8,577 nucleotides of DNA, taken from a virus (taxonomy: Duplodnaviria; Heunggongvirae; Uroviricota; Caudoviricetes). The stretch lies in IMG/VR virus record IMGVR_UViG_2711768070_000012, positions 1 through 8,577 of that record. The stretch is one strand, 5' to 3'. The number at the start of each line of letters is the position of its first letter. Positions within the stretch are counted from its first letter, which is position 1. The position numbers are program-made. Below are positions 6,001 to 8,577 of this stretch, one piece after another.

Positions 6001-8577
6001 CCGGGCGCAAGATGCAGAGATTGCCACGGTACAGGCCGTGCGGTTGATATAGCCAAAACAGAGCAGTGGGGGATAGTTGCTGAGAAAGAGTGCGGAAGAT
6101 GTAAAGGCGTCGGTTATTCAAGAATGCCAGCAAGCGCCGCATATCGCGCTGTGACGATGCTAATCCCAAACCTTACCCAACCCACCTGGTCACGCACTGT
6201 TAAGCCGCTGTATGACGCTCTGGTTGTGCAATGCCACAAGGAAGAGTCAATCGCAGACAACATTTTGAATGCGATCACACGTTAGCGCCATGATTGCCAC
6301 GGATGGCAACATATTAACGGCATAATATTGACTTTTTGAATAACTTTGGGGAAACTTGACACCAATAATGGGCGTTTTTTACATGTCATTGATGAGTCTC
6401 AATAACCTGCCGCCGAGTAGTTTTTATGCTCTGAATTGTATTTGTGTAGTAAACATGCTGACTGCAATGTAATAGAGTTTTTTTAGCCTGTAACCTCTTG
6501 ACGGCATTGAATTGCTTTTGTTATGAGTTGTAAGCCAATGTTATCATCTTGTATTGGGGTGGTTATGAAGGATGGTGCGCTGCTCAGGAGTTCTTCACTT
6601 TTTATTGCCTACATGGGATGCCTTGGATGGGGGAGTGCTTATTTCTATGGATGGGGTACTTCTTTTTACTACGGCTTCCCATGGTGGATTGTAGGTGCAG
6701 GTGTTGATGATGTTGCCAGAAGTTTATTTTTTGCAGTTATCGTCATTGCTATATTTCTTATCGGTTGGGGTATTGGTGTTGTATTCTTTTTCGCAGTGAA
6801 AAGAAAACATTCTATGCAAGAGCTAAATGTATTTCGCCTTTATTTTGCTGTGGAATTATTGTTTGTGCCGGCAATTATTGAGTTTTCTATATTGAGACAG
6901 AAGATTCAGGTACCTCTTTTGCTACTGTCAGCAGCGATTGCGCTGGCGGTTACAATTTCGATAAGATCTTATGGGCGATTTTTATCGGTATCATGCTTCT
7001 ATGATAAGCCATTTATAAAAAAACATTTTTTTGAGATTGTGATGATTGCTTTTGTGGCATATTTCTGGCTTTTTTCATTTCTGACAGGATATTACAAACC
7101 GCAGTTTAAGAAAGAATATGAAATGATTAATTATAATGATGGTTGGTATTATGTTCTTGCTCGTTATGATAATTGTCTGGTTTTGTCTACTTCTTTCAAT
7201 GCAGGTAGTAAAAGGTTTGTCATTTATCAATCAGCACAAGATAAGAATCTTCAGGTTGATATTGTAAGGACCAGAATTTAATTGGCTGCATAAATAATAT
7301 TTTAAGTTGCAAGTTGGCTATTCGTAGGAATAGAACCTTAGGCATGCTGAATGCGTTTTCTGAACATTGTTTTATAAACTGTGTCTGCTTGCTGTTGTGA
7401 TCCTGCTTTTAGTGATGGTGATGATGGATTTCACCAGCAGGATAATGTTGGTACTGACTGATGGCGCTCTGGTCTGCGGCATTGTGGTATTGCTGTGGCC
7501 GATGATGAAAGAACAGAATGAATAATTCTTGACTTTTTTGTTTACTGTTTATTAAAAAACCAACCGCATGGTGAATCCTCCTTGGAGGGGCTAAATGATC
7601 GAGTTTTAAGGGCACGTAGCGAGTTCTGTTTGATCATTGCAGAACTTAGCGGGAGGCGCCATGCGTACATCACTAATGTTATTTCCTTCTATCATTTTCC
7701 TTGTGAGTTCTGGCTGCGCATGGCGCGGCCTTTTTTTTATGACTTGCCACTGGCAGATGGTCATCCTGTGATTTGATTCCGGTTCCGGCTTTTTAACTCT
7801 GTTCCTGTACACGGGAGAAATTCGATGTCGATTAAACATTACGATGTTGTCAGGGCGGCGTCGCCGTCAGACCTTGCGGAAAAGCTGACACACAAACTGA
7901 AAGAGGGCTGGCAGCCGTTTGGTAGTCCGGTGGCCATAACCCCTTATACCCTGATGCAGGCGATTGCAGCAGAAGGTGATGTGGTGGTCAGTGGTGCAAC
8001 TGAGCCGGATTGGTACTACGTCATCGTACTGGCCGGGCAGTCCAATGCAATGGCTTACGGGGAAGGGCTTCCGCTTCCGGATTCATACGATGCTCCGGAT
8101 CCGCGCATTAAACAGCTGGCGCGCCGCAGTACAGTTACGCCGGGTGGGGCTGCCTGCAGATATAACGATATTATTCCGGCCGACCACTGCCTGCATGATG
8201 TGCAGGATATGAGTACGCTGAATCATCCGAAGGCAGACCTGAGCAAAGGGCAGTACGGCTGTGTCGGCCAGGGCTTACATATTGCCAAACGTCTGCTGCC
8301 GTATATCCCCAAAAATGCCGGGATTCTTCTTGTTCCCTGCTCCCGTGGTGGTTCGGCATTCACCCAGGGCGCGGAGGGGACATTCAGTGCGGATACGGGG
8401 GCCAGCCAGGATTCGGCGCGCTGGGGTGTGGGTAAACCATTATATCAGGACCTGATTGCGCGCACTAAAGCTGCATTACAGAAGAACCCGAAAAATGTGT
8501 TGCTGGCGGTGTGCTGGATGCAGGGAGAGTTTGACATGAGCGCCGCCACCCACGCACAGCAACCTGCGCTGTTTACA

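Follow-up and report, generated by a model that had tools for sequence, protein, structure and literature searches.

The textbook Q switch relies on a terminator placed right after a constitutive promoter. A complete Q cassette consists of a promoter, a Q-binding element, a sigma-dependent pause element and a terminator, followed by the late genes (PMC9388147). In lysogens of lambda and of Shiga toxin (Stx) phages, the late promoter pR' is constitutive and usually yields only a short terminated RNA, 6S RNA or StxS, respectively; in the Stx phages, stx lies downstream of the terminator tR' and is Q-dependent during lysogeny (PMC7547250). The site after pR' is also a site of moron insertion flanked by small RNA (sRNA) genes, including in the prophage Sp17 (Tree et al., PMC4104026). 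The window analyzed here is the whole 8,577-nt stretch of IMG/VR record IMGVR_UViG_2711768070_000012, which is part of a lambdoid prophage of Escherichia coli. All coordinates are positions in the window on the + strand, and +n denotes the distance from the putative pR' start. The Q gene of the window, its pR' block and the cargo genes behind it very probably represent a lambda-type, Q-dependent late switch whose promoter-proximal terminator has been lost. Judged from its sequence, the element appears to have every feature of the lambda Q/pR' switch but that terminator. A literature search retrieved no description of a lambda-type pR' without tR' ahead of a moron, and it is this arrangement that appears to be new, since moron insertion after pR' was already known.

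The upstream half of the switch is of lambda type. Q (PF03589 family) lies directly upstream of the pR' block and is 98% identical to lambda Q, and a 250-nt non-coding stretch separates it from the first cargo gene, which encodes a membrane protein. An earlier reading of this stretch (the original prediction) had proposed that the promoter block resembles lambda pR'/qut. Positions 6286–6372 differ from the lambda sequence at only 12 of ~87 nt and also align with phages HK97 and mEp234; by alignment, the block is homologous to lambda pR'/qut, beyond mere resemblance. The inverted repeat (6294–6309), AATAAT (6364–6369), TTGACG (6498–6503) and TTATGA (6521–6526) listed in that prediction are all present. 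The −35 hexamer TTGACT is the same in the window and in lambda, and the spacer contains a homologue of the Q-binding element (TTTTGAATAACTTTGGG in the window, TATTGAATAAAATTGGG in lambda) with 14 of 17 positions equal; Q contacts positions 1–4 and 11–13 of its binding site (PMC9388147). The pause hexamer AATAAT is closer to the −10 consensus than its lambda counterpart AACGAT (5/6 versus 3/6), as predicted. It is one base further from TTGAC than in lambda, and the resulting 2-nt gap between TTGACA and the pause hexamer is also present in the functional phage HK97. The pR' start site is probably located at 6363/6364. By the published definition (PMC9388147), the block contains the promoter, a putative Q-binding element and a predicted pause element of a Q cassette, with the −35, Q-binding spacer, −10, −35-like TTGAC and −10-like pause in the same order as in lambda and, apart from the extra base before the pause, at the same spacing. 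As in lambda, late genes follow further downstream in the full-length relatives of the window. Where the window has GGGCG and a T6 tract, lambda has GGGTTAATTCG and HK97 has GGATAAATGCA.

The −10 hexamer of pR', which the original prediction did not mention, is weakened: GAAACT matches 3/6 consensus positions versus 4/6 for TAAATT in lambda. TAAATT is retained in the minor sublineages L019, L138 and L148. Two weakening substitutions in the −10 hexamer are all that separates the major lineage from L019 across the promoter region, with a few more changes in the leader. The weakened −10 is compatible with selection to damp an unterminated promoter, although drift is possible and the substitutions are no proof. 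The inverted repeat just past the Q stop codon had been suggested to be a protein-binding site or hairpin, a suggestion for which no independent evidence was found. It is identical in lambda, HK97, mEp234 and Lambda_2B8, but its invariance is uninformative because the whole Q-pR' block is conserved, and a 6-bp inverted repeat with a 3–8 nt loop arises in 31% of shuffles of the region.

The leader beyond the pause is different. In lambda, tR' is located at +150 to +194 (−22 to −26 kcal/mol), and the window has no terminator there. A consensus scan of 6100–7500 found no intrinsic terminators, and a scan for hairpins with T-tracts between pR' and the cargo found none of canonical form in +1 to +250, the best being loose AU-rich hairpins. 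The leader does not fold better than its shuffles (z = −0.39); among nested segments, z ranged from +0.3 to +0.7 at the 5' end and was −1.27 over the entire 6363–6537 leader. An Rfam search of the leader returned no family at E ≤ 5. The one component of the cassette that was not found is a terminator shortly past the pause site, ahead of the downstream genes. Within 6360–6520, the interval fixed beforehand for this check, no strong hairpin with a T-tract is predicted and only 6430–6484 is marginal. This hairpin (6430–6477) has only two G-C pairs in the stem beside the T-run, 29% of shuffles fold equally well, its outer stem is missing in the 434 lineage and in L138, and it was not detected by the consensus scan. 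The HK97/mEp234 leader shares the Q type and the 2-nt TTGACA-pause gap with the window but, in the HK97 type, contains at +29 to +56 a strong leader hairpin of −14 to −20 kcal/mol that the window lacks.

The claim that no recognizable tR' precedes the cargo is correct in that no canonical terminator was found; it overlooked, however, a relic at 6404–6425. This sequence, AACCTGCCGCCGAGTAG-TTTTT, aligns with the 434 late-leader terminator AAACCCGCTGCCGAGTGGG-T8, from which it differs by three stem substitutions and a 4-nt deletion. Only four pairs of the stem (CUGC/GUAG) and five T of the run remain, short of a 434/82-type terminator. The hairpin free energy is −1.2 to −2.2 kcal/mol for the relic, compared to −12.2 for 434, −19.1 for HK97 and −22.4 for lambda tR'; the 434 record annotates its copy as a terminator after a Q82-like gene. 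Lambda-type homology stops at 6365–6372 and 434-type homology begins at ~6404–6421, which places the relic at a mosaic junction. The relic persists in the diverged sublineages L019 and L138/L148, with ~12% of leader positions changed in L138/L148, and the hairpin has been regained in none of them. On this comparison, the "missing tR'" would be better described as a decayed copy of a 434/82-type leader terminator, with the functional stop moved 1.35 kb downstream.

Other candidate leader functions were considered and rejected. Rho-dependent termination is disfavored by composition, which is unfavorable for Rho loading (C 14–18%, G 19–22%, with C below G throughout), although experiments might still reveal it. 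A small leader open reading frame (ORF; 6368–6472, 34 codons, ATG at ~+5) is disrupted by frameshifting single-base insertions or deletions in 3 of 10 natural variants, and its substitutions in L138 are three synonymous and four non-synonymous. A long-range stem between GGCG (6371–6374) and CGCC (6411–6414) was not taken as a terminator, as it ends 5–6 nt before the T-run, has a z of +0.7 relative to shuffles and is replaced by a different fold in L138. With regard to this pairing, L138 carries the compensatory changes C6373U and G6412A, and L105 and L133 carry single changes that preserve it through G-U wobbles.

Two surveys of IMG/VR loci place the leader in context. Among 80 loci encoding this Q, with leaders sorted into classes, the best terminators of lambda-like leaders (n = 21) have −19 to −28 kcal/mol at +135 to +189. 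In nine of the 11 HK97-like leaders the best terminator has −14 to −20 kcal/mol at about +20 to +61, and in the remaining two −19 at +78 to +131 and −23 at +202 to +231. Leaders of the window's class (n = 41 with enough sequence) contain only AU-rich hairpins of 45–51 nt (−9 to −12.5 kcal/mol) whose T tails are interrupted, so the lack of a terminator is specific to this class. A rare fourth class, found in two loci with the same Q (L078 and L083), carries AAGAAT as its pause element, with a hairpin plus T-run beginning at +3 to +31; this terminator-like structure would overlap the pause region. Among 80 loci encoding the cargo protein, only two upstream contexts were observed, a Q82-type switch with an intact terminator and the lambda-type pR' with the relic.

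The arrangement is common. The hybrid segment 6300–6540 was found in 572 of 5426 complete E. coli genomes searched (10.5%), in 556 of them with at least 99% identity. The O157:H7 strains examined, including Sakai and EDL933, carry it; in O157:H7 the module is located in the defective prophage Sp17 beside ssrA, with ECs_3501 as Q and ECs_3500 as the cargo. Over positions 5662–7400, identity is 100% with NZ_CP062871 and 98.4% with phage Lambda_2B8, which has an identical leader and the same arrangement. Lambda_2B8 is among the phages sequenced in a study of gut coliphages of 1-year-old children; the temperate phages sequenced there had been plaque-purified on indicator strains (PMC6969025). Since the arrangement is present in this plaque-forming phage, it supports a complete lytic cycle. 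Thus, a natural variant found in roughly a tenth of the complete E. coli genomes and in a viable phage does without the terminator of the textbook switch. In O157:H7 OK1 (L010) and EDL933 (L172), an IS30 fragment stands in place of all sequence upstream of the HNH/NinG genes, the lysis genes are interrupted by insertion sequence (IS) elements, and Q has no obvious early promoter.

The cargo module has the appearance of a moron, with a GC content of 36% compared to 49–56% in the flanks and an occurrence behind both Q82-type and lambda-Q-type switches. It also has its own terminator (7712–7738), which was not part of the original prediction; it is located at ~+1350, past both cargo genes, and its homologue is annotated as a terminator in 434. 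This terminator is the first after pR' because the promoter-proximal one has been lost. Where the identical sequence continues beyond the window, a second strong terminator (11-bp stem) immediately precedes the holin gene, and with these two downstream terminators the lysis genes are still guarded despite the missing promoter-proximal one. The esterase gene that follows should be the first to need Q, as judged from its position. The window stops within this gene; in NZ_CP062871 and Lambda_2B8, late genes for holin, endolysin, spanin and terminase continue in the same orientation. The features are summarized in Table 1.

Table 1. Features of the window, in order of position.
Feature	Position	Strand	Evidence and remarks
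NinG	4398–5003		
NinI phosphatase	5000–5665		
Q antiterminator gene, lambda type	5662–6285	+	202/207 residues identical to lambda Q; Pfam PF03589, E = 4e-58
Inverted repeat TTGCCA-cgga-TGGCAA just past the Q stop codon	6294–6309	+	String confirmed; RNA hairpin of ~−6.9 kcal/mol
pR' core promoter	6328–6356	+	−35 TTGACT (6328–6333), 17-nt spacer (6334–6350), −10 GAAACT (6351–6356); aligned to lambda, HK97 and mEp234 pR'
Sigma70-dependent pause module	6356–6369	+	−35-like TTGACA (6356–6361), 2-nt gap, −10-like AATAAT (6364–6369); position homologous to lambda TTGACT-C-AACGAT and HK97 TTGACA-TC-AACGAT
GGGCG followed by T6 tract	6370–6380	+	Where a lambda-type pause (+16/+17) would fall; peculiar to the window's leader class; any role conjectural
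Relic of 434/82-type late-leader terminator	6404–6425	+	Alignment to 434
Marginal weak-terminator candidate	6430–6484	+	Imperfect AU-rich hairpin 6430–6477 (−9.5 kcal/mol), then T7 (6478–6484)
Sigma70 promoter candidate of the original prediction	6498–6526	+	TTGACG, 17 nt, TTATGA; −35 5/6, −10 1/6; not listed by promoter scan
Alternative cargo promoter candidate	6518–6547	+	TTGTTA, 18 nt, TATCAT; extended −10 TGtTATCAT (6539–6547); 9/12 matches, TG present
Cargo gene 1, multi-pass membrane protein	6538–7281	+	PHROG 1521 (function unknown), E = 2e-154; GC 36%
Cargo gene 2, DUF3927/TciB-like small membrane protein	7367–7525	+	PF13064, E = 3e-14; PHROG 1470 "TciB-like", moron category
STnc100-like RNA element ending at the terminator	7536–7741	+	Rfam RF02076, full-length, 37.5 bits (gathering score 47), E = 3e-6
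First canonical intrinsic terminator after pR'	7712–7738	+	8-bp stem (7 G-C pairs) 7712–7730, then T8; −14 to −15 kcal/mol
SASA-family carbohydrate esterase, 5' part, leaves the window	7825–8577	+	Annotated so in NZ_CP062871, identical over this stretch; homologues in phages 434 and 2B8; GC 56%

Comparison with described systems shows which part of the arrangement is shared with each. The interval from pR' to the first terminator gives the non-coding 6S RNA in lambda, whereas in the window it contains two protein-coding genes and the STnc100-like element. With phages of the 434/82 type, the window shares the membrane-protein gene, the DUF3927/TciB gene, the downstream terminator and the esterase, the sequences being homologous from the leader terminator onward (~92% identity in the window, 100% in the TB4328 variant); 434, however, has a Q82-type Q and promoter with an intact ACCCGCTGCCGAGTGGG-T8, of which the window retains only the relic. 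With the Stx phages, it shares a moron in the late operon after Q and sRNA genes flanking the moron (PMC7547250, PMC4104026), and its pR' would likewise be constitutive, with the RNA up to the terminator produced in lysogens (PMC7547250). The parallel "as for stx" drawn in the original prediction is inexact: stx follows tR' and the pre-terminator RNA of Stx phages is non-coding, whereas the coding cargo of the window precedes the first canonical terminator. From this position of the cargo, basal expression would most simply come from pR' rather than from a separate promoter. Lambdoid morons, to the extent that Juhala et al. (2000) are cited in PMC4104026, are likewise low-GC inserts in the late operon with their own terminator and occur in differing phage backgrounds; relative to that account, the cargo of the window differs in that no convincing promoter of its own was found, and it may borrow the unterminated pR'.

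These comparisons suggest, with moderate confidence, that pR' reads through the cargo in lysogens, that the transcript stops at 7712–7738, and that Q extends it. The lambda-type Q/pR' block would have been joined at the relic to a low-GC cargo module that is also found behind the Q82-type switch in 434. In the lysogen, pR' would fire constitutively, though probably more weakly than that of lambda because its −10 is GAAACT. Polymerase would pause at the strengthened AATAAT and then transcribe the membrane-protein and DUF3927 genes; most transcripts would stop at 7712–7738, and the esterase and lysis genes would remain off. After induction, Q would load at the pause and take polymerase past 7712–7738 and the pre-holin terminator, boosting the cargo transcripts and switching on the esterase, lysis and structural genes. 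If the late promoter does read into the cargo in lysogens, pR' would double as a lysogenic-conversion promoter, and the short leader RNA would become a 1.35-kb mRNA with an sRNA-like element at its end. The arrangement would then offer morons a simple way to gain expression in lysogens, and it would provide a natural system for studying how much termination a Q switch needs.

Several observations weigh against read-through from pR' in lysogens. GAAACT lacks the conserved T at −12, and pR' activity may therefore be low. The relic with its T5 and the hairpin 6430–6477 with its T7 could each terminate a fraction of transcripts. The 36%-GC cargo is a likely target of H-NS silencing, which could block elongation or promote Rho termination. 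Sp17 has no early region, and selection on the switch may be relaxed there. Finally, 434-type phages keep the same cargo behind an intact terminator; if it is expressed in 434-type lysogens, it needs its own promoter, and read-through from pR' is then not required for expression. It is thus possible, if doubtful, that the module works as an autonomous moron with a promoter of its own near the cargo start (TGtTATCAT at 6539–6547 or the TTGACG element), with pR' mattering only after induction. In this reading, pR' would add little in lysogens, given its weak −10 and a halt of most Q-free polymerases by weak leader terminators, H-NS or Rho. Such a moron would explain why the identical cargo is maintained together with 120 nt of upstream sequence behind the strong intact terminator of 434-type phages, and its low GC content and own terminator are classic moron anatomy; the extended −10 candidate from the scan, the pR' −10 with only 3/6 matches in the major lineage, and the marginal hairpin and T7 at 6430–6484 point in the same direction. 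However, promoter-like matches in the region are no commoner than in shuffles (3 found, 4.2 expected), and neither candidate exceeds chance. Of the two, TGtTATCAT is the better; the separate sigma70 promoter of the original prediction matches at 5/6 positions in its −35 but at only 1/6 in its −10. Conservation is uninformative on either candidate because 6485–6565 shows no variation across lineages. Moreover, the leader elements are far weaker than the terminators of the other leader classes, the leader composition is poor for Rho, and the GAAACT promoter must suffice for the late genes in viable 2B8.

Two further explanations concern the lost terminator itself. The relic might be a neutral scar, in which a crossover at the foot of an 82-type terminator damaged the hairpin without any adaptation and the extra cargo expression is inconsequential. 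The junction between lambda-type homology (ending at 6365–6372) and 434-type homology (beginning at ~6404–6421) would fit such an event, as would the TB4328/L097 variant, which is 100% identical to 434 from the T-tract on and has three substitutions and a 4-nt deletion in the hairpin, the pattern of a mosaic boundary. The damage would be tolerated because the lysis genes keep two terminators ahead of them, and many copies reside in defective prophages. Nevertheless, this explanation is improbable given that the relic is stable across diverged sublineages with the hairpin restored in none, that 10.5% of complete genomes carry the arrangement, as does a viable phage, and that the two −10-weakening substitutions relative to L019 look like compensation for read-through, although drift is possible. 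A neutral scar alters the evolutionary reading, not the mechanism. It is very unlikely, though conceivable, that the pause has replaced the terminator, with AATAAT followed by GGGCG and U6 holding Q-free polymerase, or releasing it on a weak rU:dA hybrid, with no hairpin involved. The pause would then provide a hairpin-independent, promoter-proximal "off" state of the Q switch; combined with the weak −10, it would keep a constitutive lysogenic-conversion promoter in check, and Q loading would make the complex processive.

The start of the first cargo gene bears on its promoter candidates. Possible starts are 6523, 6538, 6565 and 6613, of which PGAP uses 6538, and 2B8 and TB4328 use the equivalent of 6565. 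The TGtTATCAT candidate would start transcripts at ~6554; the true start would then more likely be ATG 6565, with GGGGTGG in front of it. At 6518–6531, TTGT-N6-TTGT fits the loose CII-binding consensus TTGY-N6-TTGY and is annotated at the homologous site of 434. It is located 10 nt upstream of TATCAT and might mark a CII-activated promoter directed into the cargo, but so loose a motif is low in information. A hairpin with TTTT at 6631–6663 (−10.2 kcal/mol) was rejected as a terminator: it lies within the cargo coding sequence, is common to 434 and is not GC-rich. NCBIfam and Pfam searches with the 247-residue cargo protein gave no match, and literature searches on tciB, DUF3927 and ECs3500/ECs3501 yielded nothing useful for cargo function.

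At the downstream end of the module, a 64-codon ORF (7582–7776, a membrane protein in the 434 annotation) is doubtful as a gene because the terminator lies inside it. The DUF3927-to-esterase interval of Sp17 in Sakai (L171, NC_002695.2 3486349–3486411, minus strand; corresponding to what follows position 7591 of the window) is unlike that of the window and contains two tandem terminators on the pR' strand. One of them is the terminator of EcOnc06, an RNA of ~177 nt that binds Hfq (supplement of Tree et al. 2014) and contains the GU-rich run TTGTTGTGTTGTT.

Elsewhere in the window, a P1-type antirepressor control region is found on the + strand inside the nin region (2672–2870). It matches three Rfam families, namely the isrK Hfq-binding RNA (76.6 bits), the C4 antisense RNA (75.1 bits) and the c4-a1b1 targets (50.6 bits), with each score exceeding the gathering cutoff of its family. 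It is followed by two anti-repressor-like ORFs (2924–3601 and 3670–4398), a layout like that of the IsrK locus of Gifsy-1 (cf. PMC4825925).

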